From positions 1 to 64,000 of the forward strand of contig CAVSHR010000004.1 in the NCBI GenBank assembly GCA_963727625.1: DNA of 64,000 bases. The letters are read 5' to 3'. This DNA is from an uncultured delta proteobacterium. GTDB taxonomy: Bacteria > Desulfobacterota > Binatia > UBA9968. Each line of letters starts with the position of its first letter. The first letter of the stretch is position 1. Both the position numbers and the translations under genes were made by a program. Below the pieces are notes generated by a model, which made no database searches, had not been told where the DNA came from, and was given only the letters and a program-made list of their open reading frames with translations. Shown here in pieces: positions 186 through 16,658 of the stretch.

Positions 186-338
186 GGCCGCCAAACTTAG
201 GAGAGCCGATGCAAATTGTCAAGAGTAAAGACCTGACCCTCGGGGGCTTGCTGGTTAAGTGAATCCCATCTCAAAGCGATTGAGCGCGAGCTGAAACGGG
301 GTGCGCAAGCACTGGGGTACGAAACCGATCTATGGACG

Positions 339-545
339 TTGGCCCGTGTGGCCGATCTGATCGAGCAGCGCTGTGGAGTTCGATTCACCGTGGGGCATAT
401 CTGGTGGTTGCTCGGAAAACTCGGCTGGAGTTGCCAGCGGCCCACGGGTCGAGCGCTGCAAAGAGATGAGACTTCAATAGAACGCTGGAAGAAAAAGCGC
501 TGGCCGAAGCTTAAAAAAAAGCCCAGCGGGAGGGGCGCACTATAG
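339..545 (+). CDS. IS630 transposase orfA remnant (winged helix-turn-helix)
   Basis: WT..RVADLIEQRCGVRF..GHIWWLLGKLGWSCQRP motif typical of IS630 N-terminal HTH region. Confidence 0.75.
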   Translation: MARVADLIEQRCGVRFTVGHIWWLLGKLGWSCQRPTGRALQRDETSIERWKKKRWPKLKKKPSGRGAL

Positions 546-1051
546 TGTTCATTGATGAGAGCGGACTGAGCCAGCGTCCGCACCGTTGCAGGACATGGTC
601 GCCGCGGGGACAGACTCCGGTGCTGCAATACTCCTTTAACTGGAAAACGCTTTCGGCCATGGCTGGGGTAACCTGGTGGAATTTTTACTTTCGGCTGTAT
701 CCGGGCAGCATCCGTAGTGCACAGGTCGTTCAGTTTCTCTCTCATCTGATGCGTCACATCCCCAGGGATATGCTGGTGATCTGGGATGGGCTCAAAACCC
801 ATCGCAGCCGATTGGTCAAAGGTTTTGTTGGTCGCCAAAACGGGCGCATTGAACTTGAGTATTTGCCGGCCTATGCGCCGGAGCTCAATCCGGTGGAATA
901 CTTGTGGGGACACTGGAAACACCATGAGCTTCCCAACTTCTGTCCCAAGACCTTTGCGGAGCTCAGCTATCATGCGGTTCGGGCTCTCAAGCGCATGCGT
1001 CGCCGCCCAAGACTGATCACGGCTTTCTGGAAACAAGCGGAATTGTTTTGA
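545..1051 (+). CDS. IS630 transposase orfB (DDE catalytic domain)
   Basis: FIDESG, WDG..H, LPAYAPELNPVEYLW motifs. Confidence 0.9.
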   Translation: MFIDESGLSQRPHRCRTWSPRGQTPVLQYSFNWKTLSAMAGVTWWNFYFRLYPGSIRSAQVVQFLSHLMRHIPRDMLVIWDGLKTHRSRLVKGFVGRQNGRIELEYLPAYAPELNPVEYLWGHWKHHELPNFCPKTFAELSYHAVRALKRMRRRPRLITAFWKQAELF

Positions 1052-1123
1052 CGAAATTCTAGTCACTATATTTTAATAAGCTCAATAGTTGCCGCGTGCG
1101 GCTTTCGTCACTTATTGTATTAT

Positions 1124-1322
1124 CCCGAATTCCGCAGTTTGCTACGAAATATTGCGATCGATAAAGAAATAGATTGTAAATTGCACCTTTGGGCAAAGTA
1201 ACATCATGAGAGATTCACCGATTTCAACTGCGGCGCAGTTAGAATCGTAAGGCACAAGTTGTTGAATAATAGCCGCAATTTTAGTTCGAACTTTTCGCGG
1301 AATTTCTACTGCGGAATTTGGG
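1124..1322. mobile_element. 199-bp MITE (non-autonomous element, possibly IS1634-like ends)
   Basis: TIRs CCCGAATTCCGCAGT (1124-1138) and ACTGCGGAATTTGGG (1308-1322) match 14/15. Both flanks carry the direct repeat ATTAT (1119-1123, 1323-1327). No internal ORF. Confidence 0.75.
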
Positions 1323-1323
1323 A

Positions 1324-2538
1324 TTATTCTTTCACTAAGGTTTGTATAATTTCCTCGATGCCGATCGGATAATAATTGATATCGTCGTCAAACACGGCTC
1401 TGGGGAAGAAAACGGAATATCGGGCTCGGATATCATTGGCCGTGATTAATTGCTTGGTGCTAATTTCATTTGGCATTGCTACGGATGACGATGGTTTACT
1501 TTTAGTGTTTTTTAGAGCTTGCCGACGCTGAGCCTCACTTGGGTCCCAGAGCGCAAGTCGTACTCGTAGGGCTCTTTGTTTCCGGGAGTGATACGCGCGC
1601 AGCAACAACGCACGGATTGCAATATCTTCCATTGGCAGCGAGTATCCGATGAAAATCCATTCGTGTGATAGGCGCAGATCTTCCAAAGCCGCGTTCCAAA
1701 TTGAGAGTAGATGAGGTTCTCTAATGTTGCGAACGAGTGATGGTGTCACAAGTACACTGCGTAGGACACCGCCACAGTGACACGTATTGTAAGGTGTCGC
1801 CTTGGTCCAGAACTCGAGCGTTGCGATACGCTGTCTGTCGTTTACATAGAGTGTTCCACATACCTCACAACGTAGCCAGTTTAAAGAGCCATGAAGTTTG
1901 AAGACAGCAAGCGAAGATATTCGAGGGCGGTGATAATCTAAACCAGAAACAGGGTCACGAACCGTGGTACCCATATCAATCAATTTCAGCGGGTGTCGGC
2001 TTCTACGAGTAAATGCGCGGTACAGTGGAAGTTCGTATGCAACGTCGTAGTTCGTGGATACAAGAGTGATTCGTTCGCTGGTTTTCGCGGTCGTGAGGAC
2101 CCATCGGACAAAGTCGCTAACCAGTTTTCGGTTTTTAGACCCGCGTAATACGCCATTTATCGCTATGCTGAGGAGATGTTTGGCCCTACGAAGCTGCGGC
2201 TCCCTGTAGTTTGAAGCGGATGAGCGACCTTCAGCAATTAGCTGATCGACAATTGAAAGAATGTCAATGACGGAGGCTCCGGCCAACCTCTTACGGCCGA
2301 GTCCCGGCAATATTTGGCGGTAAAGCCCTCTCAGTTCTGGCGTGAACTTTGGGTCTCGTTTATCAGCTTTTACCCTCCAATTTGGTTGCCCCTTGGCAGA
2401 CTTGTTTGCCGAAACGGCTTGCCAAATCCTTTTAAGAATGTCGTCTGTTACGGGGTAGCCGAGCGGGGCTGTTGCGCCGGCACCAAGAAAAACGGTAACA
2501 CGCTTGTTAGTTCGCATGGTTTGTTTTGCTTCTTTCAA
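1324..2538 (-). CDS. SIR2-family (SIR2_2-like) NAD-binding protein with Zn-ribbon insert
   Basis: VFLGAGA..LGYP, STNYD, KLHGSLNW, CEVC...CHC, FIGYSLP..D motifs. Confidence 0.85.
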   Translation of the reverse strand: MKEAKQTMRTNKRVTVFLGAGATAPLGYPVTDDILKRIWQAVSANKSAKGQPNWRVKADKRDPKFTPELRGLYRQILPGLGRKRLAGASVIDILSIVDQLIAEGRSSASNYREPQLRRAKHLLSIAINGVLRGSKNRKLVSDFVRWVLTTAKTSERITLVSTNYDVAYELPLYRAFTRRSRHPLKLIDMGTTVRDPVSGLDYHRPRISSLAVFKLHGSLNWLRCEVCGTLYVNDRQRIATLEFWTKATPYNTCHCGGVLRSVLVTPSLVRNIREPHLLSIWNAALEDLRLSHEWIFIGYSLPMEDIAIRALLLRAYHSRKQRALRVRLALWDPSEAQRRQALKNTKSKPSSSVAMPNEISTKQLITANDIRARYSVFFPRAVFDDDINYYPIGIEEIIQTLVKE

Positions 2539-2623
2539 ATTTGGAGACTATTTCTAAATTGTTGTGATAATTATGCAAACGTGTGATCGATTAGATTGGT
2601 TTTTATACATTGGAAAAAATATC

Positions 2624-3430
2624 CTAAGAAAGTTTCGAATGATCCAGTACAGGCCAGGTGTTCGGACCGACAATACCGTCGGGCACAAGCCCATGTGCGG
2701 CTTGAAAGGCCCGCACCGCAGCTTCGGTTTTAGCTCCGAATTGTCCGTCTACGCTAACGCCGATTGTTGCTTGGATTTCATTCGCTAGCTCGCCGGTGGC
2801 TCCACGACGGAGAGTAGGCCGGCCGCGAGAATTAGTAGGATCGTTTGGGCGTTCAAAAGCCGGAATTAATACAGGCGCTGGCGCTGTTCCATTTATGATC
2901 GCGTTAACCGCAGATCGGAAATCATTCATATCGAAGGTAGGATCGGGTTTGCGGCCTGGTGGCAAGGCATATTCTTTGTGTCCAGCACAAAATTCGGCTC
3001 CACGATTAACGTGTTTTAATATGGCCGCAACGCCACGTTGGTAAGCATTAATTTGGACTGTAGGCCAGCGTGAGTCGTTTGATAGTCCGGTATTCTCCGC
3101 TTCTATGCCTATAAAATTTGAGTTGCCGGTTCTCAGACCTTGCCAAATCCCGTCTCCCGCATGGTTCGCTCTACCGGCGGCGATCACAAAGTAAGTTCCA
3201 TCCCGGCCTAGACCGAGTTGTGCCAGCGGGCCCGATAGATCTGGGCGACCGTTAATGAGGGTATTAAGGCTGGGCATATTCCCAGCCTTTGGGCCCGCAG
3301 TGTGATGACAGATGACCCCGAAAATTTGACCAGCGTCGCCGCGGCCGCGGTTTTCCCAATCATCAACCAATGAAACCTTTAGACCCGCATTCATCAGCAC
3401 GTCCGGCAACCAGGTTAGGGAAAGTGCCAT
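2624..3430 (-). CDS. N-acetylmuramoyl-L-alanine amidase (Amidase_2) with C-terminal peptidoglycan-binding domain
   Basis: VICHHTAG, ANHAG, IGIEAEN, GHKEYA..RKPDP. C-terminal TLRRG...DGQFGAKTEAAVRAFQ...DGIVGPNTW (PG_binding_1). No signal peptide. Confidence 0.9.
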   Translation of the reverse strand: MALSLTWLPDVLMNAGLKVSLVDDWENRGRGDAGQIFGVICHHTAGPKAGNMPSLNTLINGRPDLSGPLAQLGLGRDGTYFVIAAGRANHAGDGIWQGLRTGNSNFIGIEAENTGLSNDSRWPTVQINAYQRGVAAILKHVNRGAEFCAGHKEYALPPGRKPDPTFDMNDFRSAVNAIINGTAPAPVLIPAFERPNDPTNSRGRPTLRRGATGELANEIQATIGVSVDGQFGAKTEAAVRAFQAAHGLVPDGIVGPNTWPVLDHSKLS

Positions 3431-3431
3431 A

Positions 3432-4436
3432 TTACGCCACTCCTCCTACCGTGGGTGGTAGTTCCTCATCCGATGTGACTGACTGAATCGGAACATCGCA
3501 TCCATCAATGTTGCTCTCAGCGTCGCTAGATTCTGGTTTGGCAGCATCCTGTGTTGCAGCAGTAATTGTCATCTTTACTGAACTGGAAGTGCCTCCTCCG
3601 GGCGCGGGATTGAATACCGTCACTGTAATCTCCCCCTCGGTTGTGACATCCTCTGACGTAAGCTTGGCGGTCAACTGAGATGCATCGGTAAATGTTGTTT
3701 CACGGCTAACGCCATTGATCAGTATCACTGCTCCTTTCACGAATCCTGCACCTTTCACACTCACAGCCACGTCTTTAGTTCCGGCTTTAATAGTATGGGG
3801 TTCAAGATCAATAATACTTGGTACCGGGTTGGACAGACTGTCCTTTCGTTTGGAATCTCCCTCATTGGGAGCTGTCCTGAACAGAGTATTGAAAACTTCG
3901 TTTAGCTTGTCGGTAGCTTGCTTCGAGAACATCCCGACGAGCCCAGCTAAGGCCGCAATACCGAAGGGGTTGATGTTGCCCGCCTCGGTCCCCGCAGAAA
4001 GAAAACCACCACGAATGGCAACGTAGAAGATGGCCGCTAAAGCCATGCCAATGAATGGTCGTAATATATACCACCACAACCAGTTAGAATTGAATTTCTC
4101 ATTGCCGACATAATCGCCAAACGAGGTTGCGGCATGGATAAAACTCCCCAAACCTCCCGCCGCCAACACCATTAACAAAAGTCTTTGGTCGAGTGTAACT
4201 CCGTCTAGCAAGTCCAAAAAAGGTATAACTTGCTTAGCGTCGCCTTTTGCTTCTGGATTTAACCCAGAAGGCCATAGTGCCAAGAACAAATACGCCAGTA
4301 AAATACCGAAAGCTACTAAGCTCCACCCCATGAGCGCAGTCTGTTTAGCACTCGCAATTTTGGCTGTTTGTTGCGATGTCGGCTGGTCGTTCATTCTTCC
4401 GTTGCTGACAGTTGGGTTGGTCTCATCTTCTGCCAT
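3432..4436 (-). CDS. Multi-pass membrane protein with C-terminal IPT/TIG (Ig-like) domain
   Basis: About 4 hydrophobic segments (GGLGSFIH...WYILRPFIG...AGLVGMFSKQATDKL), then NPVPSIIDLEP..VKGAGF...ITVTVFNPAPGGGTS Ig-like repeat. Confidence 0.75.
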   Translation of the reverse strand: MAEDETNPTVSNGRMNDQPTSQQTAKIASAKQTALMGWSLVAFGILLAYLFLALWPSGLNPEAKGDAKQVIPFLDLLDGVTLDQRLLLMVLAAGGLGSFIHAATSFGDYVGNEKFNSNWLWWYILRPFIGMALAAIFYVAIRGGFLSAGTEAGNINPFGIAALAGLVGMFSKQATDKLNEVFNTLFRTAPNEGDSKRKDSLSNPVPSIIDLEPHTIKAGTKDVAVSVKGAGFVKGAVILINGVSRETTFTDASQLTAKLTSEDVTTEGEITVTVFNPAPGGGTSSSVKMTITAATQDAAKPESSDAESNIDGCDVPIQSVTSDEELPPTVGGVA

Positions 4437-4649
4437 AGTGGTTCTCCTTAAAAATGTACCGCGAAGCGCTAGTGATCGAAATTATTGTTTTTGTTAGTTT
4501 TCCGAGCGTTGACATTACCCAGAAAATCGACCACCAAGATATTCTTCAGAAAATCAGGGGACACATTGTCAAGTGTTATCCGGTGGATGGTTCGGAAATA
4601 TGTATTATGTCCCGGGAATTCCACGGCCCCGGAATTCGCCCAGCTCGGG

Positions 4650-4796
4650 TCAGTCGAAATGGGCGGTAACGTCCCAGGTTTGCTCTATGTTGTTCTTCAC
4701 TGCACGAATCTCTTTAGCGCCGTCGTTTGAGAAGCTCTGGACGACGGTGCCCAAGCGCTCTCCCGGTACGTCCTTCAGCTTTTCTTCTCTTGCCAT
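4650..4796 (-). CDS. 48-aa microprotein of unknown function
   Basis: Manual translation MAREEKLKDVPGERLGTVVQSFSNDGAKEIRAVKNNIEQTWDVTAHFD*. Strong RBS AAGGAGGT upstream, co-oriented inside the gene cluster, below the ORF-track cutoff. Confidence 0.7.
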   Translation of the reverse strand: MAREEKLKDVPGERLGTVVQSFSNDGAKEIRAVKNNIEQTWDVTAHFD

Positions 4797-4819
4797 GGCT
4801 ACACCTCCTTAATTCACAT

Positions 4820-6163
4820 TTAAGGGATTGAGAGTGCGTCAATGGCTCGCTGCCTCTCGTTAGTGTACTCTCTACCGTAGATGAGAGTTGTTGAGGAGAT
4901 GTTGAGGCCGTTGCTCGCTATCCACTTGTTTAGACGACGGCGTAGAGTGAGATCGGTGCTGAGCGCTTGTTCGATTCGTGCCGTTGCGGCATCCGCCGTA
5001 AAAGTTGCCGTTAGCATTTTTGAAATGACATTCGAAAGAAGTGCGATGCAAAGTTCGCGAACTTGCGCGTAGCCCTCTTTCTGGCCACTATCCCAGTTAT
5101 TATAGTTTCGTGGAATATACGTCAGTAAGTCCATGCAGGAGTCGTGCGTATATTCTTTCGAAAGCACAGTTTGTACGATGCCCTGAACTGCGCTAGCGAT
5201 TGACTCCGTCGCCTCTTTGCTCAGTTCCTTGCGCTGCGCTATTGAAGAATTGAATTGACCTGCTCCGGCGGTATTGGCAATAGCGGAAGTCAGAGCTGAG
5301 TCTTTGATGTTTTCTATGGTCTCGCGGGTCTTCTTCGCTTCGGCAAGGAGCGCCTCGTTAGTTTTTACCTGGTTCTCTGCAGCAGCTAGATCGTTTTTTA
5401 AACGGTTCAAATCGTTTTTCTTATTGTCGGCATCAGCTTTCAGTTTTGCGCGATCCTCATCGGTGCCGGTCGAATTCGCTACTGCTTGCTTGTAAGTCGT
5501 ATCAGCAGCCGTCCATTCCACACGTTTGTCGTCCGCGGCTTTCTTGGCCGCATCGCGTTGCTTTTTAGCGTCCTCAAGACCTTTTGCTTTTGCTTCTTCG
5601 TCCTTGCGTGCGGCGTCTAGAAGTTGTTGGTTCGACAGGAGGCTTGCAGAGGCCCCGGCGCCTGCGGTGTTGGTCAGAATAACCTGATTAGCGGCAATTG
5701 CGCCGGTTAGTTGCTCGACTGCGAGGATGCCGGCTGTGAGGTCCTGGCTTCGGCGTAGGAGGGTTGCGACTTGTATCGGACCGATAGCGCCGTTCAAATA
5801 GGACTCGCAGGTTCGGTAGAGGGCATCGCGCATCAACGTGATTGACTGAGTGCGGAGACCGATACTGCCGGCAGAACTGGACAGAGCTTGGGCTAGTGAG
5901 CCTGCTCCTTGACCGGGGACGCTGATACCCAATCCTAAAGCCGATGCGTAAGCTGCAAGGGCGTCGGGACTAGGTTCAGCACAAAAATCTCCTATTGCTT
6001 TCACCATGACTAGACGTTGCTGCGCGTCGAGATGGATGGCGACGCCGTGGTGGCTTGTGGACTGCGGGAGCCAAGTGCGTCTTTCTATTGTTTGCAGGTT
6101 TGCGCAACCAATTAGGTTGAATACACAAATTGTTAAGATCAGAATTGAGAGCTTGCAAACCAT
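4820..6163 (-). CDS. Predicted lipoprotein with central coiled coil
   Basis: Start at ATG 6163 (GGAGG upstream), lipobox LIGC, CAEPSPDA...RDALYRTCE motif, long Ala/Lys/Glu-rich heptad region. Confidence 0.7.
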   Translation of the reverse strand: MVCKLSILILTICVFNLIGCANLQTIERRTWLPQSTSHHGVAIHLDAQQRLVMVKAIGDFCAEPSPDALAAYASALGLGISVPGQGAGSLAQALSSSAGSIGLRTQSITLMRDALYRTCESYLNGAIGPIQVATLLRRSQDLTAGILAVEQLTGAIAANQVILTNTAGAGASASLLSNQQLLDAARKDEEAKAKGLEDAKKQRDAAKKAADDKRVEWTAADTTYKQAVANSTGTDEDRAKLKADADNKKNDLNRLKNDLAAAENQVKTNEALLAEAKKTRETIENIKDSALTSAIANTAGAGQFNSSIAQRKELSKEATESIASAVQGIVQTVLSKEYTHDSCMDLLTYIPRNYNNWDSGQKEGYAQVRELCIALLSNVISKMLTATFTADAATARIEQALSTDLTLRRRLNKWIASNGLNISSTTLIYGREYTNERQRAIDALSIP

Positions 6164-6302
6164 ATGGACCATCCTCCAGTTAATTACGTCAGCAACTGTA
6201 GTGGTTCGATGCAACACATTTTTTATTGTTACACAGCATGTTTCAGCGGGTTTTGTGCCTGTTGTCTAAGGACGGAATGAAGCAATCCGTCGCGTTTAGC
6301 CC

Positions 6303-7178
6303 TCAAAACTGCCCCGTATTCACCCAATCTGCGGAAATGAGCGTCCACCAGTCTTCTGCCAAATCCTGAGTGACGTACTTGTAAGACATCCAACCGTAGC
6401 CCGCGTTGCCCCAGGTTGTCCCCCATGAATTGCGGACGAGTAGGGCGCCGCGGTCGGTACCGATCATGAGATTGTCGTCATAACCGGCGGCGACGATGGC
6501 GTGGCCGCCGCGGTAGTGGCTGTTCGGAGCGGGGAACGCGATTAGGCCGCCGGGAAGGGGGTTGTCGAACTCGCTATACACGGGAAAACCGAACATGCTT
6601 GGGAAGCCGTGGGCGAGATACGTTTTGATACTCGCGAGAACTTGTGTGGGCGAGGTTCCGGCTGAGTCGAGGCGGAAGTATTTTATGGCCTTGTAGTTCG
6701 CGCCGAAGGCATAACAGAATGCGGGAGGCTCGACATCGTAATGGGTGTTGGTGTTGTACGGGCTCCCGTCGTATGGCCAATATTTTTCCGGCGGGGCGCC
6801 AAAAAGGACCAAGGCTTCCATTGCCGTGCGCAAGTAGGCGCCCGTGTCGCCCGTCCAGTTGAGAAGATTTCGCTCGGTCTTGTAGAGGAATAAGCGCGAT
6901 GCGTCGATGTGGCCGCCCTTGCTGCGTCGCTCGAAGTATTCAAGAAGGCCGACGGCGGCATTTGCCGTGCACGAGCCCAGGGAGCCTTGATCTTCGATGG
7001 GAGAGAACCAGTTGCGCAAGTCAACTTGTGAGGGTGGTACTGCTGGTGGTTGTGCGGGCGTCAAGCGTGGAGCAAGTCGTGTTCGATTCAATAAAGGGGC
7101 AACTTCAGGATGATTCTCTGTATAATCACTTGGCTTGGGCACATCAGGCAACCAGCCGAGGCCGCGAAGTTCTTCCAT
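6303..7178 (-). CDS. Papain-like cysteine protease (peptidase C1A, xylellain-like)
   Basis: DQGSLGSCTANA (Gln/Cys), GGHAIV (His), RNSWG (Asn). Start MEELRGLGWLPD with AGGAGA RBS. No signal peptide. Confidence 0.92.
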   Translation of the reverse strand: MEELRGLGWLPDVPKPSDYTENHPEVAPLLNRTRLAPRLTPAQPPAVPPSQVDLRNWFSPIEDQGSLGSCTANAAVGLLEYFERRSKGGHIDASRLFLYKTERNLLNWTGDTGAYLRTAMEALVLFGAPPEKYWPYDGSPYNTNTHYDVEPPAFCYAFGANYKAIKYFRLDSAGTSPTQVLASIKTYLAHGFPSMFGFPVYSEFDNPLPGGLIAFPAPNSHYRGGHAIVAAGYDDNLMIGTDRGALLVRNSWGTTWGNAGYGWMSYKYVTQDLAEDWWTLISADWVNTGQF

Positions 7179-7346
7179 CGGATTCTCCTTTCCGAATTGA
7201 GTAAACCAGCGATCAGTCACCAAAGTACTACACAAAAATCTGACGCCCTATTGCAGCCTCAATTAGTTTCTCCGGCTGAGACTGCTTGCTCTGCTGCGTC
7301 GCGGTTCTAAATAGCGCGTAGCTCGACAGCTGTCCAATATAAAATT

Positions 7347-7382
7347 CCTATATCAGTGATATAGGTTTTTCTTATATCACTG
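7347..7382. promoter_or_regulatory. Palindromic operator, probable LysR-type binding site between divergent genes
   Basis: Perfect dyad CCTATATCA-G-TGATATAGG (7347-7365), overlapped by a second dyad CAGTGATATA...TATATCACTG. Contains T-N11-A. Confidence 0.55.
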
Positions 7383-7777
7383 GGGTCTTTTTGAGGCTTG
7401 GGTTGGTAAACTGGTGACCGGCCGCAATCAGGGGAAATTGTCACGCAGGCTGGCTCTTTCTTACAATCCCCGGAGCTTGCAGACGCCGCCGATGCGGCAT
7501 ATAGCGTTGCGACAACCAGTGTTGACGGTCAGGCAACCAACGGTTACACAACGTTTCCAAGTGGCGACTTGTCAGAGATCGTACGGCCACGCGTCGAGTG
7601 AATTTTATCAACGAATTGCGGACGTGCACCTTATTGACAGCTTTCCTTGGGTTGGCGCGGTTTTTGATTACTAGTCCGGTGGATTCGAAGCAGCTATTCC
7701 ATGGAACGAGTGAATTGAGGCGTGGGGCTCGACATCGCGTTGGCCGCGTAACTGCGGTGACAACCGGGAGGTTAGGC

Positions 7778-8683
7778 ATGACGCTTAGTCAATATTCCTT
7801 TTTCGCGACGGTGGCCAAGCATCAGAGCGTCACCAAGGCTTCGGAAGAGTTGCGGATCAGCCAGCCGTCCATATCGCAGCAACTGAGGCAGTTGGAAAAC
7901 CGGCATGGTTTTAAGCTCTACCGCCGCTTGAGCCGGGGGATCGAAATCACCGAGCGAGGGCAGGCGTTGCTGCGTGACATCACGCCGATCCTCGAGCAAG
8001 TCTCCAAACTGGAGAGCGGTTTTAGCGCGCGACAGCGCAAGCTTGTTCCTCAGGTTTTAAAAGTCGGAGGGACATACAGCGTGTCGGCGGAGCTGCTGCC
8101 CGCGGCGTTGGCGCGTTTACAGCAGCATAATCCTGAAGCCGAGCTTGAGTGTCGGACCGGAAGATCGGAGCAGTTGGAACGGATGGTGCTGGCCTCGGTA
8201 ATGGACTTGGCGGTGATCGCCCAGAAAGCATCCTCGGAAGCATTGGTTTCCGAACCGTTGGCCCGCGAGAAGGTCGTATTGTTCGTGCGGGCCGATCACC
8301 GGTTTGCGAAAATGACTAGAATGAATCCCACGGACTTGGACGGTGAACATTTTATTGTTCGCGGCGGCAGGGGAATTTCGGGGGTTACGGAAAGCGCGGT
8401 GAAACAGTTGCTGGATCGAGGTTTGGAAATAAAAGTCGGCTTGCGCTGCGATAGTCCCGCGGCGGTCATGGCTGCCGTGCGCCACGGAATGGGTGTGGGG
8501 GTTGCGTTCGAGAATACCGTCAAGGCGGAAGTGAGCAGAGGCGAGTTCGCGATTCTTAAAGTTGCCGGTTTAAAGCTGACCGGGGAGACATTCATCGTCT
8601 ATGCGAAAAAACCGCCGTTATCGCCCTTGGCGCAGGAGTTTCTCAGCCTGCTGCGGGAGGAGCGGCGGAATTCTAAAACATAA
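7778..8683 (+). CDS. LysR-family transcriptional regulator
   Basis: MTLSQYSFFATVAKHQSVTKASEELRISQPSISQQLRQLE HTH plus substrate-binding domain. GGGAGG RBS before ATG 7778. Confidence 0.93.
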   Translation: MTLSQYSFFATVAKHQSVTKASEELRISQPSISQQLRQLENRHGFKLYRRLSRGIEITERGQALLRDITPILEQVSKLESGFSARQRKLVPQVLKVGGTYSVSAELLPAALARLQQHNPEAELECRTGRSEQLERMVLASVMDLAVIAQKASSEALVSEPLAREKVVLFVRADHRFAKMTRMNPTDLDGEHFIVRGGRGISGVTESAVKQLLDRGLEIKVGLRCDSPAAVMAAVRHGMGVGVAFENTVKAEVSRGEFAILKVAGLKLTGETFIVYAKKPPLSPLAQEFLSLLREERRNSKT

Positions 8684-8688
8684 TAGCC

Positions 8689-8905
8689 GTTCCAACGGTT
8701 CCAATGACTCCAGTCGTTCCAGAGCCGTGTGCGGAGCCGGCGTGACCGGACACCAAAGTTCAAGTGTTCAAGGTTCAAAAGTTCAACGTCAGGCCCGTTG
8801 GCCGATCGAATAGTTTCAAGGGTTCCAGTAGTTCCAGCCGTTCCACCGCTGCGCACGGTTCAACGCCGTCGCGCGGTTCAAAGTTCAAGGTTCAATAGTT
8901 CAACG
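8689..8905 (+). repeat. Intergenic GTTC(A/C)A short-period repeat tract
   Basis: More than a dozen GTTCAA/GTTCCA units spaced about 7-9 nt, between convergent genes. Confidence 0.7.
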
Positions 8906-8938
8906 ACAGATCCCGCATATTGTCCAATCCAATAGATT

Positions 8939-10708
8939 TCATCTGCGGCGTCTCGGTGGTTTCATCCACGGGATCGGTTTGCCGAGTAGGGGTTTTGGGC
9001 CGACGAGGGCGGGGGATTGTTTGTAGCCCAGATCGGCTAGTCGTTTGGCGGTCTGCTCGATGAGGGCGGTGAAGCTTGGGTTTCGGCCGCGGCGGCGCGT
9101 GTCGCGCAGCAGTTTCACTAGGCAAAACGTAAACGCACCGTAGGCGTTGGCGCCGTCGCGGTACTCGTAGGCAAGTTCTTGCTCCTGGCAGGCTTCCAGG
9201 ATGATCGGCAGGTAGGCGCCGTGGTGATCCAGCGCTTTGCGCTCCCGGTCGTAGCGGGTGTTGGCCAGGCCCCGCAGGGCGACGCCGCGGCCGATGCGGC
9301 GAGTGACGCCGTTGACGCCGAGATATTCGTTGCCGGCCCGCGAGCGGTCGAGCGAGCGATTGAGCACGTCCATATCGCGCTCGATCCACATTTCCATTCG
9401 GCTATCCCAGCGCAGGGCACGATGACGCACGTCGTCGGGCGGGTTGATGCCGCGGGCGCGCGGGCCGCCGTCGCGGGTCAAGCCGCCGGAGTGGCAGCAG
9501 TCGAAGATCGCCGCGAAGCGCGCTTGGTAGGGAAGCTGGCTGTAAAACTCGACGAACTGGTTATCGGTAAAGGCGTGCTGCGGGCTCCAGTCGAAATCGT
9601 AGGGCACCAGGCATTCGTCGAAGCGGTCGACTTCCTCCTTGGCGCCGTAGGCGGGTATCTGGGCGCCGTGGCCGGAGTAAAACAGCACCCGCTCGTCGCC
9701 GTCTCGCACGCCGTCGAGCAGCCAGTGGAGCCGCTCCAGGATCCCGGCCGTGGTGGCGCGATCGTTCAGCACCACGCGGATGTCCTCGGATTGATAGCCG
9801 CATTCCTGCAGCACCGAGCTGATCAGGAAGTTGTCGTTGACGCAGCCTTCCAGTGCATTCGCAGGATTCGGATAATCGTTGATGCCGATAAGCAGTGCGC
9901 GCCGGTTGGGCGGCGGCGCGACGGTTCGGCTCAAGCGAACCGCTCGCGCCAAAGATCGCGCCGGCCGCGGCGCGGCGATATTGAACCAGACGCGGGCCTG
10001 GCTGTTGGCATGGTTGAAGTAATAAATCGGGTCGTGATTGAGAAAGTCGTTGGGCTTGTCGAAGTGAGTCAGGATCTGGGCAAACCGGGCGCTCTGCACC
10101 CGCAGCTCGGCGGTAAACACATGGTCGTCGTCATTATAGAGGTGGTACCACATGCGGGCATCGAGGGGCTCGATGCGGCCGGCGAAACAGTCGCGTACAA
10201 ACGGGTTGGCGATCTGCGAGCCGAAGGTGATGAATACTTTTCCAGTCAAGGCCGTTGGGTTGCGACGAAAGGTGTCGTAGGAAATCAATGACCCCAAGCT
10301 ATGCGCCGCGATGACATCGTAGGTTTGGCCGCCCAACTGTTTGAGCAGACGGGCGCGCAGTTTGGCGCGCAAGTCGTCTTCCGAGCCCCACTGGGCGATC
10401 ATCCCGGCGGTCCATCGCGCCTGTTCGGGCAGGTCGAAGATGCCCCGCGCACCTGGGAGCAAATCGCCAATGCCGTGGACCACGCCGCTGGCCAGCAGCG
10501 TGGCGAAGGCTTTACCGTAAGTAACTGCGTCGAGCGGCGCATGATCGAAAAGATCGTCATAGGTCAGAAAATCGCAACTTACCGCGGCGCTGGGATTCCA
10601 GCGTTGAATGTTTCCCGTGATCGCCTCGGTCCAGGAAGGGACGAGGGCGGGATCAGCGTCGCCATGGCCGACGCCGTGAACGCATAAAATATTGAACGAG
10701 GATGGCAT
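8939..10708 (-). CDS. Alpha/beta-hydrolase + caspase-like (peptidase C14) fusion protein
   Basis: N-terminal VHGVG, AHSLG, ITFGS, DDDHV. C-terminal ALLIGINDY..LEGCVND, YSGHG (His), FDCCHSG (Cys). Confidence 0.88.
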   Translation of the reverse strand: MPSSFNILCVHGVGHGDADPALVPSWTEAITGNIQRWNPSAAVSCDFLTYDDLFDHAPLDAVTYGKAFATLLASGVVHGIGDLLPGARGIFDLPEQARWTAGMIAQWGSEDDLRAKLRARLLKQLGGQTYDVIAAHSLGSLISYDTFRRNPTALTGKVFITFGSQIANPFVRDCFAGRIEPLDARMWYHLYNDDDHVFTAELRVQSARFAQILTHFDKPNDFLNHDPIYYFNHANSQARVWFNIAAPRPARSLARAVRLSRTVAPPPNRRALLIGINDYPNPANALEGCVNDNFLISSVLQECGYQSEDIRVVLNDRATTAGILERLHWLLDGVRDGDERVLFYSGHGAQIPAYGAKEEVDRFDECLVPYDFDWSPQHAFTDNQFVEFYSQLPYQARFAAIFDCCHSGGLTRDGGPRARGINPPDDVRHRALRWDSRMEMWIERDMDVLNRSLDRSRAGNEYLGVNGVTRRIGRGVALRGLANTRYDRERKALDHHGAYLPIILEACQEQELAYEYRDGANAYGAFTFCLVKLLRDTRRRGRNPSFTALIEQTAKRLADLGYKQSPALVGPKPLLGKPIPWMKPPRRRR

Positions 10709-10806
10709 GGTTCATTACCTCCTTAGGTCGAAACCGGGCGGGTCCTTAGAACGGTGCGCTCTGTCGAGGATGCCTAGTGTTTCGCTGTGGGCCGTGCCGA
10801 GGCCTT

Positions 10807-11619
10807 CTAAATAGTGAACGGTTTCTTTGCTTCGAAAGCGGCGTTGGCAGTTCCGATGAAATAGTAGTTCGGTGTTTGCGTGGACGGCATGAGCGAGACG
10901 ATCTTGTCGCGCAGCTTGCGATGGTTGCCCTTGAATCTGCCGCCGTTCCACACCTTCTTTAACGTGCCGGTGAAGGCGCCGTTTTTTTCTCCATCCATGG
11001 AGGTTTGATTGTCCATGCAACCGGCGATGAGCAGCACGCTGGCGGCGACCCGGGTCTTTTCCGCGCCGCGGGTTCGCTTCTGGATGGCGCGGTAAAGCGC
11101 GCGATTGGCGTTCTCCGTCTTGGCGCCGACCGCACGTGGCATGGCGCGCGGCTTCGAGCCGGCGCCGCGGAAGGCGGGGATATCGCGCGTCACCGTGCCG
11201 CTATGACAGCTGTCCGATAGAACTAAAATACGCACTCCCGCTTTGAACTTGCTCCACAGGCCGTAGAGCTCATCGTCGACCAGTTGGCGGTCGAATAGCA
11301 CCCAGGTCTCGTCCATACGGTCGTTGTCCGTCTCGTCGCCGTTGGTGTCGCGTACCTGGCCGCCATGGCCGGAATAGGTGAGAAGAAAGATATCGCCCTT
11401 GGATAATCTTTTAGCCGCGTCTTGAATCGCGGCGGTGACGGCGGCGGCCGTCGCTTGGTTGTCGAACAGCAGGGTGTTGCCGGTAAATCGTCTCTTTTTG
11501 GCCAGGGCGCGCATGTCTCGGGCGTCGGCGATGCAGGCGTTGAGCGCGCCGTCCCAGCCCTGATAGTGTTTCGGATCGACGCGATTCAAGCCGATATGCA
11601 GGGAAATTCCTTTTGCCAT
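10807..11619 (-). CDS. Stand-alone caspase-like protease (metacaspase, peptidase C14)
   Basis: LHIGLN..LNACIADA, YSGHGGQ, SDSCHSG, GCMDNQTS..NGAFT motifs. Confidence 0.92.
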   Translation of the reverse strand: MAKGISLHIGLNRVDPKHYQGWDGALNACIADARDMRALAKKRRFTGNTLLFDNQATAAAVTAAIQDAAKRLSKGDIFLLTYSGHGGQVRDTNGDETDNDRMDETWVLFDRQLVDDELYGLWSKFKAGVRILVLSDSCHSGTVTRDIPAFRGAGSKPRAMPRAVGAKTENANRALYRAIQKRTRGAEKTRVAASVLLIAGCMDNQTSMDGEKNGAFTGTLKKVWNGGRFKGNHRKLRDKIVSLMPSTQTPNYYFIGTANAAFEAKKPFTI

Positions 11620-11750
11620 AAATGCCTCCCCTTTGAGATCTCTTCAGTGCAGTTCAAAGTGTAGAATCCGATGCTTCTTGCTGTCAAGAAAATATCCCGC
11701 ACCGACGGTGCTCTTGGCAAACTTTTCCACTTTTATTTCATTTCTTCACA

Positions 11751-12018: not shown

Positions 12019-12663
12019 ATGAGTACGCGACTATTGTTGCTTTTCTGTTGTGTTTTCGGCTTATCGGCTTGCACCGCATCGACTACGGTTTCACGGGGCG
12101 CAACGCTTCTCTCCGGGCTTAAGGAGTATCAAGGGGACATGCAGCGTTTCAGCGGCTCGCCGTTACGTTGGCCGGACCGGCAGCGGACCGGCGGCAACCT
12201 GAAAAACGTTATTACCGTGACCGTTGGCGCCTCGCCTGAGTTTTATCGCCTGGTCGACCTCGATATCAGAAAAAGAGAGTTCGAGGTCACCCTGCGCGAA
12301 ACCAATGTGCCCGCCGACCGCGTAAAGGAAATGAAAGACGAGTTGATTCAAATGAACCAAGAGATCACCGCGCTGAAACCGGTGATTCGCACCCAGCTGG
12401 CGTCGCTCCGACTTGACACTGCAGCCGAGCATGGCGTCGAAGAAGTGGCTGCGCGCGGCTTGCTGAGCTTGGCGCTGGAGGAGTTTTCCTCTAACCGCCG
12501 CGCGGGCGGGTTTGAGGCGCCGGCCACCAAGGTGGGGCCCTATGTTGTTAGCGATTTAGGCTCGTTTGCGACGGTGCGTGGCCCGGACGGGCGGAACTAT
12601 CGCTGCGTGGTTTTCGGCGTGGCCGAAGAAGGCGCCGGCATCAAGTGCGAACCAGTGAAGTAA
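12019..12663 (+). CDS. Hypothetical lipoprotein
   Basis: Signal peptide with lipobox LSAC, central coiled coil. Confidence 0.65.
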   Translation: MSTRLLLLFCCVFGLSACTASTTVSRGATLLSGLKEYQGDMQRFSGSPLRWPDRQRTGGNLKNVITVTVGASPEFYRLVDLDIRKREFEVTLRETNVPADRVKEMKDELIQMNQEITALKPVIRTQLASLRLDTAAEHGVEEVAARGLLSLALEEFSSNRRAGGFEAPATKVGPYVVSDLGSFATVRGPDGRNYRCVVFGVAEEGAGIKCEPVK

Positions 12664-12908
12664 AGTTTTTAATTTCTGGTTTTAGGTTATAGCGGCCAGC
12701 CTCTAAAGATTGTTAGACAAATTGTTGCCGCTTCAGCGGTCATACAGGCGCTAGCCAGAACCCCCACTTAATCTCCCCCTTCGCTCTGGGGGAGACAAAG
12801 AGGGGGATTTCGGGTTGTCCTGGGCGTTTACCTGGACAGCCTGCAGGGGCGTTGAATGTATGCCGCGAACTTGTGCGACACCACATCCGGTTAGTCTTGA
12901 AACCGTCA

Positions 12909-13982
12909 TTAGAGCAAGCGGAACGAGCGGGTCTTGATGATCAGAAATACCGGTAAGTTCTCACGCAAGCCGAGGCGCGTGACCGCCGAAGCAGTCAGGC
13001 CGACGAAAAATTCTTCGCCGGCAAAAATGCTCAGCATCGTAGCGCCGTCGAAACTCTCGATTCTTCGAATTGTCCCCGGCAAGACGTTGGCGGCAGAGAT
13101 GCCGTCCGGCCACTGGGTGGCGATCAGGATATCGTCGGCGCTGACGCCGGCTTGGCAAACCGAGCCGGCCGGGCGTGGCGAGTAAGGAATGAACAGTTCC
13201 ACGCCGGAGCGCAATCGGACCCGGGAGGTGCCGGCTGCGGAGTCGGATTCCACAAAAGTCGCCGTCAGGACGTTTTCGAATTGCTCGTCTGGAAGCTGCG
13301 CCATCGCGCTCATCGAGCGCAGCGTGTCTCTCGGAACGCCCTGCGCGACGAGCCGTCCTAGGCGGATCATCAACACCCAATCGGCTAAAGTGAGCACTTC
13401 GGTGAGATTGTGCGTCACGTAAATCATCGGGATCTTGAACTCGTCGCGGACGCGGGCGAGGTAGGGAAGAATTCTTTCCTTGAGGCCGATGTCGAGGGCC
13501 GCTAGCGGCTCGTCGAGCAAGAGCAAGCGCGGCTTGGACAAGATCGCCCGCGCCAGGGCGACGCGCTGGGCTTCGCCTCCGGAAAGTTGAGTGACGGGCC
13601 GGTTCAACAGATTGCCGATCTCCAAAACCTCCAGCACATGGCCGAGCTCGATGGATTGCGCCGGCGGGGCCATGGAGACTCGCCTTGCGCCGAAAAGGAT
13701 ATTGCTTCGCACCGAAAGGTGGGGAAACAGCGCGCCCTCTTGCGGCACGTAGCCGATGCCGCGGGTGCGCGCCGGCCGGTTGATTCTTTGCGCCGAGGAG
13801 AAAATCGCCGCGCCATTGATCTCGATCTCACCGGCATCGATTTGCCGTAAACCGGCGACGGCGTCGAGCAGGGTCGTCTTTCCCGAGCCCGACGGCCCGA
13901 AGATTGCCGTCACCTTGGCATCGAAAGCGGCGTCGATATCGAGCTCGAAACTCGCCAGCGGTATGCGGCAGCGCAATAGCAT
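12909..13982 (-). CDS. modC: Molybdate ABC transporter ATP-binding protein
   Basis: GPSGSGKT, LSGGE, LLLDEP, C-terminal TOBE region; operon with modB and modA. Confidence 0.93.
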   Translation of the reverse strand: MLLRCRIPLASFELDIDAAFDAKVTAIFGPSGSGKTTLLDAVAGLRQIDAGEIEINGAAIFSSAQRINRPARTRGIGYVPQEGALFPHLSVRSNILFGARRVSMAPPAQSIELGHVLEVLEIGNLLNRPVTQLSGGEAQRVALARAILSKPRLLLLDEPLAALDIGLKERILPYLARVRDEFKIPMIYVTHNLTEVLTLADWVLMIRLGRLVAQGVPRDTLRSMSAMAQLPDEQFENVLTATFVESDSAAGTSRVRLRSGVELFIPYSPRPAGSVCQAGVSADDILIATQWPDGISAANVLPGTIRRIESFDGATMLSIFAGEEFFVGLTASAVTRLGLRENLPVFLIIKTRSFRLL

Positions 13983-13983
13983 G

Positions 13984-14658
13984 TTAGGCCGTCTTTCCCG
14001 ATCGGAGCAGCCACTCCGAGCTCCAGACGAGCAGAAACGCTAAGGCAACCGTGATACCGAGCAGGGTGTAGGCTTCTGTGTCCTTACCCAATTGGACGAA
14101 ATTGTAGATCGCTAACGACAGTGTCTGGGTTTCGCCGGGAATATTTCCCGCCACCAGGATGGTCGCGCCGAACTCGCCGAGCGCGCGCGAAAAGGCCAGT
14201 AGCGCGCCGGAAACGATGCCACGGTAGGCTAACGGAATCGTCACGACAAAAAATATTCGCAAAGGGGACGCGCCGAGGGTCGCGGCGATCTGCTCGAGGC
14301 GTGGATTGACCTCGGCAAAAGAAGTGCGGACCGAACGGAAAAGCAGGGGAAAGGACATGACCGACATGGCGATGAGAACGCCTTTCCAGTTGAAGACGAT
14401 CTCGACGCCGCGCTCATAGAGCCATTGCCCGAGAGGGCTGCGCCGTCCGAAGATCTTCAGCAGGATCAAACCGGTGGATACCGGCGGCATGACCAACGGC
14501 AGCATAAAGATGGTTTCCAATATGCTCTTGAGCGGCCATTCCTTGCGTGCGAATAGCCAAGCCAGCGCGATGCCGAAGGGTAGAATTACCAGCGTGCCGG
14601 CAAGCCCGACAGAAAGAGAAAAGAGGGTGATTTGCCAGGTGTCGAAGGAAAAAATCAC
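13984..14658 (-). CDS. modB: Molybdate ABC transporter permease
   Basis: LPLVMPPVSTG, RALGEFGATILVAGNIPGETQT motifs. Confidence 0.95.
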   Translation of the reverse strand: MIFSFDTWQITLFSLSVGLAGTLVILPFGIALAWLFARKEWPLKSILETIFMLPLVMPPVSTGLILLKIFGRRSPLGQWLYERGVEIVFNWKGVLIAMSVMSFPLLFRSVRTSFAEVNPRLEQIAATLGASPLRIFFVVTIPLAYRGIVSGALLAFSRALGEFGATILVAGNIPGETQTLSLAIYNFVQLGKDTEAYTLLGITVALAFLLVWSSEWLLRSGKTA

Positions 14659-14676
14659 GAAATGAAAAATCTCCGT

Positions 14677-15489
14677 TCAATCCAACACGACAAAGCCGTA
14701 TTTCTTGAAAGAATGTTTCGCGCTTGGACTCTGGAGATAGTTCAGAAAAGCGCGAGCTGCGGCCTTGCGTTTCGATTCTTTGACGATCGCCACCGGATAG
14801 GTGATCTTGGGGCCTTTGTCGATGGGAATTTCGTAGGCGATCGTTACTTTGCTGGAAACTGCGGCGTCGGTCTTATAAACGAAGCCGGCTTCGACATTGC
14901 CCGACTCAACTGCGGCGAGGCTGGCGCGGACATCTTGCACGGGCACGACCTTGGCTTTGAGCGGGTCCCACAACCCTTGGTCGGTCAGGTATTTCCGGCT
15001 GTAAACACCCGCCGGCACGGAGGACGGCTCGGCAAGAGCGATTCTTTTGACGTTGGCCTTCATTAGGTCCTCGGACGACGCGATCAAAAGTTTTGAACCC
15101 GCCGGGACGATGATCACCAACTGATTCGATAGCAGATTTTCCCGCGTGCCTGGTTCGAGCCGTCCGTTCTTGTCGAGATTCTCCGTCTGCGCTAGATCGG
15201 CCGAGAAAAACAGATCCACCGGTGCGCCTTCTTCGATCTGCCGTGCCAAGCCGCTGGATGGGCCGAAATTGAATTTTACCCTGTGCTTGGATTTGGACTG
15301 ATAGTCTCTGCCGATTTCTTTCAGGGCATCGGTGAGGCTGGCAGCCGCCGAAACCAGGATTTCATCGGCGCGCGCCGTCATGGGAACGAACCAGATAAAA
15401 GCGCTCAAAATTATTAAGCCTGCGGTTGGGATCCGATGAGGGTTTTTCATCTCAACACTTCGCAATTGCAGCGCATGGAGAAAGTCCAA
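14677..15489 (-). CDS. modA: Molybdate ABC transporter substrate-binding protein (true start may be ~15450)
   Basis: VSAAASL, FGPSSGLARQIEEGAP, SVPAG.Y, GFVYKTDA motifs. Confidence 0.95.
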   Translation of the reverse strand: MDFLHALQLRSVEMKNPHRIPTAGLIILSAFIWFVPMTARADEILVSAAASLTDALKEIGRDYQSKSKHRVKFNFGPSSGLARQIEEGAPVDLFFSADLAQTENLDKNGRLEPGTRENLLSNQLVIIVPAGSKLLIASSEDLMKANVKRIALAEPSSVPAGVYSRKYLTDQGLWDPLKAKVVPVQDVRASLAAVESGNVEAGFVYKTDAAVSSKVTIAYEIPIDKGPKITYPVAIVKESKRKAAARAFLNYLQSPSAKHSFKKYGFVVLD

Positions 15490-15494
15490 ACGAT

Positions 15495-16658
15495 TCAGCG
15501 GCGCAGCTCGACGATTTTCCCGGTGTCGCGGGTGTCGTATCCGCCTAGGGCCTCAAGCTCGGCGCGAAAGGATTTGCCGACGATGAGATCGAGCAAGTTT
15601 CTCAAAGCCGGCAGCGATTGATAATGGGTTTTCGGAATCACCAGATCGTAGCGCTCGCGCTGCAATGCAATGAACCCCAAGCCGCAGATCATCGCCGCTG
15701 CGCGGGCGCCGATGCCCGCGTCAGCCAGACCGGCTCGCACTCGAGACGAAACTTCCAGATGGGATAGAACCTGGTCTGCGTAGCCTTTGACTCGGGCGGA
15801 TGGAATGCCTGCGGATTGAAGCTCGCGATCGAGCAAGCGCCGCGCGCCCGAGCCTCTTTCGCGATTGACAATTCTAATTCCGGGGCGGTTGAGATCGGCG
15901 ACGCCGCGAATCTGTTTCGGATTGCCCTGGCGCACGATGATTCCTTCTTCCCAGTGGGCGAAGGTGACCACCGTGCAGTCCAGTCCACCGATGTTGCGCT
16001 GCAAATCTGGAAGATTCCAAGCTTCGGAACTTTCATTTGTGAGATGGACACCCGCAACGTGCACTTCGCCCCGTTTGAGCGCGGCCAGCGCGGAGCTGTT
16101 GCCCATGACACAAGGCACAAGATTGTCTTCTTCATGCTTTCTCAGGTGCTCGGCGGCAAGGAACATCGCCGGATCGCAGCCGCCGATCGCCACCTGGCGA
16201 ACTATCCTCGCGCGGTCCTTGAAGAGTTGGATTTTCACCTGCTGACTTTTAGAGTTAGTACCAACGATCAGGCCGTCGGCGCGAGCCGTCAAGCTTTTCA
16301 ATTCACCGGCGCCATCCAGCGGCCGCGCCAGTAGCCGACTGCCGACCTGGATCACCTGAGCGCGGAGTTTGTCGCTGCCCTTCGGTAAACCGCCCAACAG
16401 TACACTTTCGATGATCTCACCATCACTCCTGATGCTAAAAAGATCCTCGACCCGGCACCTGAGGGCTCGGGCGAGTTGCAGCGCCACCGACGTGGCGGGG
16501 GAGTATTGGTTTGATTCCACGGCAGAAACCGCCTGACGGGTCATTCCAGCCATGGCGGCGAGCTGCTTCTGCGACAATCCCACCGCCTGACGTTTTTCCC
16601 GGAGTCGGCACTCGATCATCGGCTCGATCGTTTTTATCGTTTTTTGAGGTGCAGCCAT
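15495..16658 (-). CDS. XRE-HTH / periplasmic-binding-protein-like (molybdate-binding) transcriptional regulator
   Basis: N-terminal XRE HTH (LSQKQLAAMAGMTRQAVSAVESNQYSP). C-terminal PBP_like domain (VNRERGSGAR, ERYDLVIP). First gene of the mod operon. Confidence 0.85.
   Translation of the reverse strand: MAAPQKTIKTIEPMIECRLREKRQAVGLSQKQLAAMAGMTRQAVSAVESNQYSPATSVALQLARALRCRVEDLFSIRSDGEIIESVLLGGLPKGSDKLRAQVIQVGSRLLARPLDGAGELKSLTARADGLIVGTNSKSQQVKIQLFKDRARIVRQVAIGGCDPAMFLAAEHLRKHEEDNLVPCVMGNSSALAALKRGEVHVAGVHLTNESSEAWNLPDLQRNIGGLDCTVVTFAHWEEGIIVRQGNPKQIRGVADLNRPGIRIVNRERGSGARRLLDRELQSAGIPSARVKGYADQVLSHLEVSSRVRAGLADAGIGARAAAMICGLGFIALQRERYDLVIPKTHYQSLPALRNLLDLIVGKSFRAELEALGGYDTRDTGKIVELRR

Follow-up and report, generated by a model that had tools for sequence, protein, structure and literature searches.

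Two adjoining metacaspase genes lie in a 64,000-nucleotide stretch of DNA, here called the window, from an uncultured delta proteobacterium (Desulfobacterota, Binatia, UBA9968; GenBank assembly GCA_963727625.1, contig CAVSHR010000004.1, positions 1 to 64,000). Both genes are on the minus strand, and all coordinates given are window positions. The gene at 10807..11619 encodes a stand-alone protein of 270 aa of the GSU0716 family (the small metacaspase). The gene at 8939..10708 encodes a protein of 589 aa (the fusion), in which an alpha/beta-hydrolase domain is followed by a linker, a metacaspase domain and a basic C-terminal tail. A preliminary description of the locus had recorded tandem caspase-like proteases at 8939..11619 and this stands, as both open reading frames (ORFs) are found on the minus strand and both match Pfam PF00656 (Peptidase_C14). 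The small protein matches with E 1e-23 over residues 17-253 (84.7 bits) and the fusion with E 9e-27 over residues 269-569 (94.7 bits; curated cut-off 21.4). The 6.6-Mb genome has C14 matches in these two proteins only. PADLOC 2.0 assigned the two metacaspases to its generic 'caspase' model only (E 4e-12 and 2e-17).

Organisation of the locus

The small metacaspase and fusion genes look like one operon, because a promoter-like site lies 5' of the small gene, a spacer of 98 bp (10709..10806, minus strand) separates the two, the sequence AAGGAGG stands just 5' of the fusion ATG and a terminator-like site, looked for on the minus strand of the spacer, was not seen. The promoter-like site (11658..11687, minus strand, ~40 bp 5' of the small gene) reads TTGACA-18 nt-TACACT and agrees with the sigma-70 consensus at 10/12 positions; it is a consensus match only, three such sites having been seen where 0.7 would be expected from shuffled sequences. 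No RNA sequencing run was listed, and the six DNA runs listed have small shares. GC3 is 0.775 for the fusion, 0.75-0.77 for its neighbours and 0.75-0.78 for the pair; a recent foreign origin of the fusion was considered and set aside, since its GC3 is like that of the neighbouring genes. No signal peptide was seen on the small metacaspase or the fusion, nor, by eye, on the partner proteases described below, and the idea of a secreted protease/lipase pair was dropped on that account.

The small metacaspase is built of p20, a linker and p10, without a prodomain. It aligns end to end with GSU0716 (PDB 3BIJ; E 5.9e-87, residues 1-270 against 1-277). The text of Choi and Berges (2013, PMC3734836) presents GSU0716 of Geobacter sulfurreducens as a bacterial type I metacaspase, likewise without a prodomain and with p20 and p10, and the likeness takes in the p20 region, a linker of ~50 residues and the p10 motif. 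The gene context differs, for the operon of GSU0716 has, in the account given in the text of a 2012 survey (PMC3501461), an amidase domain and not a hydrolase-metacaspase fusion. The putative catalytic residues His85 (SGHG, nt 11365-11367) and Cys138 (DSCHSG, nt 11206-11208) are invariant in 24/24 aligned relatives. The p10 motif AGCMDNQTSMDG (nt 10990-11025) fits the SGCxDxQTSADV-like consensus quoted in PMC3734836. One related locus (L011) has two small metacaspase genes (2426-3238 and 4950-5792) upstream of a single fusion gene; they belong to two sub-lineages and are ~80% and ~70% identical to the small metacaspase of the window.

The N-terminal domain is a predicted lipase-like hydrolase

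The N-terminal domain of the fusion (aa 1-245, 9974..10708, minus strand) has no familiar sequence signature. No Pfam match to residues 1-260 was found even at E 10, and the NCBIfam search gave RutD alone, with E 0.0044 and far below its cut-off. The AlphaFold model of the domain, built from 40 sequences, has a pLDDT of 82. In a structural comparison against 48,161 solved chains, alpha/beta hydrolases took every one of the first 50 places (Z 10.8-12.7, 160-218 aligned residues), among them carboxylesterases, dienelactone hydrolases, acyl-protein and palmitoyl-protein thioesterases, lysosomal phospholipase A2 and a DDHD domain. Foldseek against the PDB gave weak and mixed matches (E 1e-4), flavodoxin-like azoreductases among them. 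Judged by its predicted fold, the domain is a lipase-like alpha/beta hydrolase outside the named Pfam and NCBIfam families.

The putative catalytic residues were placed by the order of strands in the model, not by the three-dimensional geometry of a triad. An HG pair (aa 11-12) follows strand 1, the nucleophile elbow AHSLG (aa 135-139) with Ser137 (nt 10298-10300) follows strand 132-136, Asp195 follows strand 186-191, and His225 or His233 would complete the set after strand 209-213. Ser137 and Asp195 are invariant in 56/56 aligned sequences, and the catalytic residues as a whole, His225/His233 included, are invariant or nearly so in the alignments of 56 and 40 sequences. Distant relatives and language-model neighbours point weakly towards lipids (LCAT, PGAP1, DUF676, DUF900); the language-model atlas scores are < 0.9 and these names are leads only.

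Conserved Arg-Gly pairs mark two candidate cut sites

The hydrolase domain has one long loop of low confidence, at aa 75-90 (10439..10486, minus strand), where pLDDT falls below 50 (at 82-90 in one of the two models). Within this loop lies Arg88-Gly89 (nt 10442-10447), a candidate activating cut site. Arg88 is kept in 55/56 sequences and is followed by Gly in 51 of them.

The inter-domain linker comprises 23 residues (aa 246-268, 9905..9973, minus strand). It was modelled as a helix with middling confidence, and the full-length model has a pTM of 0.82, which suggests that the hydrolase and metacaspase domains pack together and are not joined by a free tether. The preliminary description had noted the AHSLG hydrolase domain, the Arg-rich stretch APRPARSLARAVRLSR of this linker (aa 246-261) and intact His/Cys dyads in both proteases, all of which are borne out by the alignments and models. 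It had also placed the activating cut in the Arg-rich linker, and here the evidence points elsewhere: Arg251 (49 R + 5 K of 56) is the only well-kept basic residue of a linker that is otherwise variable, and the sharply conserved sites are Arg88-Gly89 and a second pair, Arg419-Gly420, in the metacaspase domain.

The metacaspase domain (aa 269-575, 8984..9904, minus strand) keeps SGHG (His347) and DCCHSG (Cys405) in 56/56 sequences. The DECLVPYDFD motif is also invariant, and an Asp precedes the catalytic Cys; these features hint at Arg/Lys specificity and calcium dependence. An insert of ~90 aa (409-500) separates p20 from p10, whose variant motif EACQEQELAYEY begins at aa 505. Arg419-Gly420 (9449..9454, minus strand) lies 14 residues past the catalytic Cys in this inter-subunit linker, next to a low-confidence loop (407-414), and both residues are present in 56/56 sequences. 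Caspase-fold proteases are usually processed in this region, and Arg419-Gly420 is a candidate self-processing site.

The best solved matches of the C-terminal domain are the plant type II metacaspases AtMC9 and AtMC4 (E 1e-19 to 2e-20; Foldseek E 5.6e-13). Cys405 aligns with the catalytic Cys147 that is mutated (C147G/C147A) in the Arabidopsis metacaspase 9 chains, the p10 motif aligns with that of AtMC9, and a DEC..P.D motif and a long insert between p20 and p10 are common to both. Identity is low, however (20-23%), and the insert of ~90 residues compares with ~160 quoted for type II in PMC3734836. Calcium dependence and self-cleavage, known for the plant enzymes, are for the fusion no more than possibilities.

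The hydrolase domain is homologous to a caspase-linked hydrolase

A profile of the N-terminal domain, searched against 401 Pseudomonadota genomes, gave 13 weak matches in 13 further genomes, nine of which were fetched and examined. One of them (L104) is a stand-alone hydrolase of 297 aa. The gene upstream of it encodes a protein of 624 aa whose C14 match (E 5.6e-4, 20.1 bits) stays below the cut-off of 21.4. hhalign joined the domain profile to the L104 hydrolase with a probability of 97.2% (E 4.1e-11, 231 columns), and the hydrolase domain of the fusion is thus, by profile comparison, homologous to a stand-alone hydrolase encoded beside a caspase-like gene.

Comparison by eye with the LcHydrolase sequence that Evans et al. 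(2025, bioRxiv, PMC12642450) list in their Table S1 makes the L104 hydrolase a near relative, in which both Arg-Gly sites are present. According to the text of that preprint, LcHydrolase of Lysobacter capsici AZ78 is a stand-alone alpha/beta hydrolase that is activated by caspase cuts after Arg-Gly. In hydrolases of this type two conserved Arg|Gly cut sites flank an inhibitory fragment, site 2 being Arg117|Gly118, and the cut fragments of LcHydrolase kill E. coli. In the alignment with L104, Arg88-Gly89 of the fusion falls on the ERG that corresponds to site 2. As far as the text of the preprint describes LcHydrolase and LcCaspase, the likeness comprises a small alpha/beta fold in which an insert separates strand 4 from the nucleophile strand, the Arg-Gly at site 2, a tie to a caspase-fold protease and an export signal in neither system. 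The differences are that hydrolase and protease are one polypeptide here, with no sensor domain attached; that the protease, with its DCCHSG motif and a p10, is a true metacaspase and not of the LcCaspase type; and that the fusion often has an extra partner protease gene and is without the site-1 stretch.

Other distant stand-alone hydrolases have other neighbours. At L102 (4881-7539) one adjoins a protein with TPR-S and trypsin-like parts, at L103 (3402-6908) another adjoins a SIR2_2 and STAND NTPase protein, and the remaining six of the nine adjoin ordinary genes.

The fusion family is widespread, conserved and patchy

Of 8000 proteins scored in a search for relatives of the fusion, 1652 matched at E <= 1e-3. 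The best 120 of the 1652 are 57-90% identical, and 118/120 cover at least 98% of the query. The profile of the N-terminal domain matched 249 cluster representatives at E <= 1e-30 among 1.84 billion. Going by source names, the family occurs in Methylomirabilota, Nitrospirota, Terriglobia, Usitatibacter, Rhizobium, Bradyrhizobium, Planctomycetota and others, including records named Rhizobium sp. LjRoot258 and Bradyrhizobium japonicum. Its spread is nevertheless patchy: the fusion was found in 4/31 genomes of the genus of the window, in 1/400 other genomes sampled in the phylum and in 2/401 sampled Pseudomonadota genomes, the centre genome G461 included. Identity between phyla is 60-70%, which fits horizontal transfer of an accessory gene. 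By these sequence comparisons the fusion family is large, widespread and very conserved yet patchy, and is without a name or a model for its N-terminal domain. The literature search found no description of it; fused forms may appear in the figure panels or the PDF supplement of Evans et al., which that search did not cover.

The hydrolase also appears in other combinations. Among 25 odd-length representatives tested, six (P0158, P0215, P0227, P0247, P0253, P0257; 1050-1153 aa) have a PF04185 phosphoesterase in front of the hydrolase and metacaspase, one has a PLD-like domain behind and two have FAD-linked oxidase-like parts. At L016:4846-6207 a separate PF04185 phosphoesterase gene (E 1.9e-81) lies 34 bp 3' of the fusion gene. 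P0193 (699 aa, contig end not checked) has a clostripain domain in front of the hydrolase, and P0264 (814 aa) a CHAP domain in place of the metacaspase, so that the hydrolase domain appears linked to cysteine peptidases of three families. Split forms, with a stand-alone hydrolase within the family, are not claimed, as many short matches sit on contigs of 1-2 kb and three of seven short proteins cluster with a protein of ~590 aa.

One locus (L105; G784:C1:3061000-3075000, ~6905-9718) comes from a 7.15-Mb Pseudomonadota genome that is a single contig. Its fusion gene is broken near residue 85 into two frames, and the downstream small metacaspase likewise matches in two ORFs; these are pseudogenes or assembly errors. 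At another (L062; 223-2226 and 4180-6327) a fusion relative lies 25 bp downstream of a TIR-PASTA protein, beside an ATPase with PADLOC matches of the mad3/mad8/AriA-like kind. This is the only clear defence-island setting among the loci examined.

Proteases of three families adjoin the fusion

We collected 87 fusion loci and dropped seven exact duplicates, which left 80 in which near-duplicates remain (e.g. L045/46/48 and L063/64). A protease gene adjoins the fusion on the same strand in 33/80 loci. The partner is a GSU0716-like metacaspase upstream in nine loci, a small metacaspase downstream in a further nine (that of L007 being of another subtype), a clostripain-family (C11) protease in twelve (eight upstream, four downstream) and an astacin-like (M12) protease in three. 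Short contigs bias this count, and a stricter set was also used, made up of 33 non-redundant loci whose flanks each reach at least 1.3 kb. In these well-flanked loci an adjacent same-strand protease is present in 14/33 (seven C14, five C11, two M12) and a distant partner in one. Pfam assigned the C11 partners with E ~1e-50 (6/6 tested) and the astacins with E 1e-10 to 1e-11 (2/2 tested), and the His/Cys pair is kept in 10/10 C11 partners.

Gaps between fusion and partner range from 3 to ~500 bp, and both gene orders occur. In a quick maximum-likelihood tree of the fusion the partner types fall in separate clades. The clade of the window (99% support) has the small metacaspase upstream in all nine judged loci, and its sister group holds clostripain partners. 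Pairwise identities of fusion and partner gave Spearman coefficients of 0.28 in the clade with downstream C14 genes and 0.53 with C11 partners, the only group in which co-variation was more than weak. Loci without a partner have unrelated neighbours, mostly ordinary genes (cytochromes, GST, flagellar genes), and in these relatives Arg88-Gly89 and Arg419-Gly420 are also kept.

The prediction of a complex between the fusion (56-row alignment) and the small metacaspase (24 rows) scored 0.00 in two runs without controls, a result that says nothing either way on binding. The basic C-terminal tail of the fusion, GKPIPWMKPPRRRR (8942..8983, minus strand), is rich in Arg and Lys, with at least four of these among the last 12 residues in 55/80 fusion relatives, some of which end at contig ends. 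Arg-/Lys-rich C-terminal tails recur on upstream clostripain partners and downstream small metacaspases (L013, L016, L018, L028, L038, L039, L042, L045); the small metacaspase of the window has no such tail.

Discussion

We propose, with a probability of about 45%, that the fusion is a protease-effector module of the kind known from prokaryotic conflict systems, built as one polypeptide. In this model a cytoplasmic fusion would keep a lipase-like alpha/beta-hydrolase latent, joined to an Arg-specific metacaspase. Once triggered, the fusion would be cut after Arg88 by its metacaspase domain (in cis or from another copy), by the neighbouring protease or by both, with a further cut probably after Arg419 in the inter-subunit linker of the metacaspase itself and perhaps one in the inter-domain linker too. 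The cuts would turn on a hydrolase of esters or lipids, which would harm the cell. The small metacaspase of the GSU0716 type, probably co-transcribed, would fill the partner slot in which other lineages have a clostripain-like or astacin-like protease; its place could be upstream, as an activator, or downstream, as a second executioner. The sequence makes proteolytic licensing of the hydrolase likely. What we infer beyond this takes in the cleavage events, toxicity, substrate, trigger and biological role of the fusion, and the role may be defence, stress-induced death or something milder.

The preliminary description had read the pair as an initiator/effector cascade. The operon-like arrangement of the pair, the homology of the hydrolase to a caspase-linked hydrolase and the recurrence of a second protease give partial support to the idea of a cascade, in which either protease may come first. 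The small metacaspase had been cast as the initiator, a role for which the evidence is less favourable. Self-processing may be at least as likely as cleavage by an outside initiator, because the Arg-Gly sites are kept where a partner is not present, and the partner may equally be a downstream zymogen. A parallel for the partner slot may come from type III-B CRISPR, where SAVED-CHAT reportedly activates PCaspase in a prokaryotic protease cascade. The likeness would be that one protease licenses another caspase-fold protease, which could explain the slot; the difference is that there is no CRISPR or cyclic-nucleotide sensor here, and the comparison is one of logic. PCaspase is named in Evans et al. 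(PMC12642450).

A bolder form of the proposal, which we regard as unlikely, is that the fusion is a self-contained death switch without a sensor. The metacaspase and its own latent lipase-like effector would form one tier of a protease cascade, the other tier being filled interchangeably by a metacaspase of type I or by a protease of the clostripain-like or astacin-like kind. The arrangement would be a prokaryotic counterpart of initiator/executioner caspase pairs and possibly be triggered by calcium or by membrane damage, with no phage sensor of its own.

Several results weigh against a one-chain conflict module. A protease partner is not present in 18/33 well-flanked loci, and within the clade of the window fusion and partner do not co-vary in pairwise identity (Spearman -0.24, 21 pairs). 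Of the 31 genomes of the genus, 15 hold an orthologue of the small metacaspase (at least 71% identity) and four the fusion. Mean column identity in the fusion family is 54-68%, which is unusually high for a defence gene. Among 80 neighbour ORFs of relatives, setting aside two partner metacaspases that match the generic caspase model, PADLOC gave clear matches in L062 and L007 only and weak ones in L084 and L029. No sensor domain was found in the fusion, whose 589 residues are taken up by hydrolase, linker and metacaspase, or in the bare small metacaspase. The link to LcHydrolase runs via L104 and a comparison by eye, not via a direct alignment of LcHydrolase. In the L104 alignment, moreover, the stretch with cut site 1 is an insertion that the fusion family is without, and the two-cut mechanism is therefore not transferable as such.

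Some of these results would suit two independent neighbours, the small metacaspase being a resident gene of the genus and the fusion a self-sufficient accessory gene, without cross-cleavage. Of the 15 genus genomes with a small metacaspase, 11 have no fusion, and at genus loci without the fusion the block of lipoprotein, NMT1-like and metacaspase genes is kept in 7/7 fetched while the genes downstream vary. The well-flanked loci without a protease neighbour, the lack of co-variation in the clade of the window and the Arg-Gly sites kept where a partner is not present agree with this explanation. It has more difficulty with the repeated placement of same-strand proteases of three families beside the fusion, which is seen in separate clades and with either gene order; C14 and C11 genes are rare, this genome having just its two C14 genes. 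The upstream position of the small metacaspase in all nine judged loci of the clade of the window and the operon-like spacing in the window itself also speak against it, and we rate chance adjacency as improbable. Conservation of the neighbourhood, raised in the preliminary description, is partial: an adjacent protease of one family or another is present in 14/33 well-flanked loci and the small metacaspase in the clade of the window, against 18/33 loci without an adjacent protease and most genus genomes with a small metacaspase, which are without the fusion.

A doubtful alternative takes the pair to be non-lethal, a regulated esterase and peptidase of housekeeping or stress metabolism that serves, for example, the turnover of lipids, lipoproteins or damaged proteins, with the metacaspase as a chaperone-like or maturation protease. 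Some eukaryotic metacaspases have been reported with chaperone-like or maturation-protease roles. The very high conservation across phyla would fit such an enzyme, as would the mostly ordinary neighbours with few PADLOC matches and the lack of a sensor domain. The very patchy spread of the fusion (4/31, 1/400 and 2/401 genomes in genus, phylum and Pseudomonadota) does not, and an identity of 60-70% between phyla fits the horizontal transfer of an accessory gene better. The homology to a caspase-linked hydrolase that resembles LcHydrolase by eye, whose cut fragments kill E. coli in the text of PMC12642450, and the fusions to phosphoesterase and PLD-like domains also speak against it.

A strict cascade, with the small metacaspase acting first and a cut in the Arg-rich inter-domain linker setting free a lipase that damages membranes, is very unlikely. 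In its favour, a linker is present with Arg251 basic in 54/56, metacaspases are Arg/Lys-specific in the text of PMC3881575, the small gene is first in the operon and the weak leads to LCAT, PGAP1 and DUF676 are of the lipase type. Against it, the linker varies apart from Arg251, the Arg-Gly sites with sharp conservation are found outside it and one of them aligns with a proven cut site of a related hydrolase, the small metacaspase stands downstream of the fusion in another clade, some partners are metalloproteases for which an Arg preference is not expected, and the model suggests packed domains in place of a free tether.

If the fusion is a one-chain module of the kind proposed, its interest lies in its compactness. 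Very recent work has shown that the licensing of effectors by proteases is one of the main principles of bacterial immunity; among these effectors, least is understood about the substrate and activation of the alpha/beta hydrolase. The fusion family would be a natural variant in compact form, in which hydrolase and protease share one chain, a single Arg-Gly is conserved at a position proven to be cut, and there is no sensor. This build could open both the activation step and the substrate to direct tests. The swapped partner proteases would amount to a natural experiment on bacterial protease cascades. Relative to the published modules, hydrolase and metacaspase in one chain would be the new element; the principle of a protease-activated hydrolase is already known.

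Surroundings of the pair

The preliminary description had placed the pair near a papain/SIR2 cluster. The papain-family gene (6303-7235; PF00112, E 2.9e-14) does lie 1.7 kb from the fusion, with three cysteine-protease genes within ~5.3 kb, but the genes of the cluster (window 197-7235) were not found near the metacaspase pair in any relative examined and form a lower-GC stretch, with GC3 of 0.47-0.53 for most genes. The stretch holds an ORF for an IS630-like transposase, a coiled-coil protein, a peptidoglycan-amidase-like gene, the papain-family peptidase, a SIR2-like gene with a weak PADLOC SIR2 match (E 9e-7) and a membrane protein with a CoaZ repeat (NF058597, E 1.7e-27). On the other side of the pair, a gene for an NMT1-like binding protein stands between the lipoprotein gene and the small metacaspase in most relatives, and the window is without it. 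The lipoprotein gene itself, a molybdate-type ABC transporter operon and a regulator occupy 12019-16658, a block that is syntenic across the genus.

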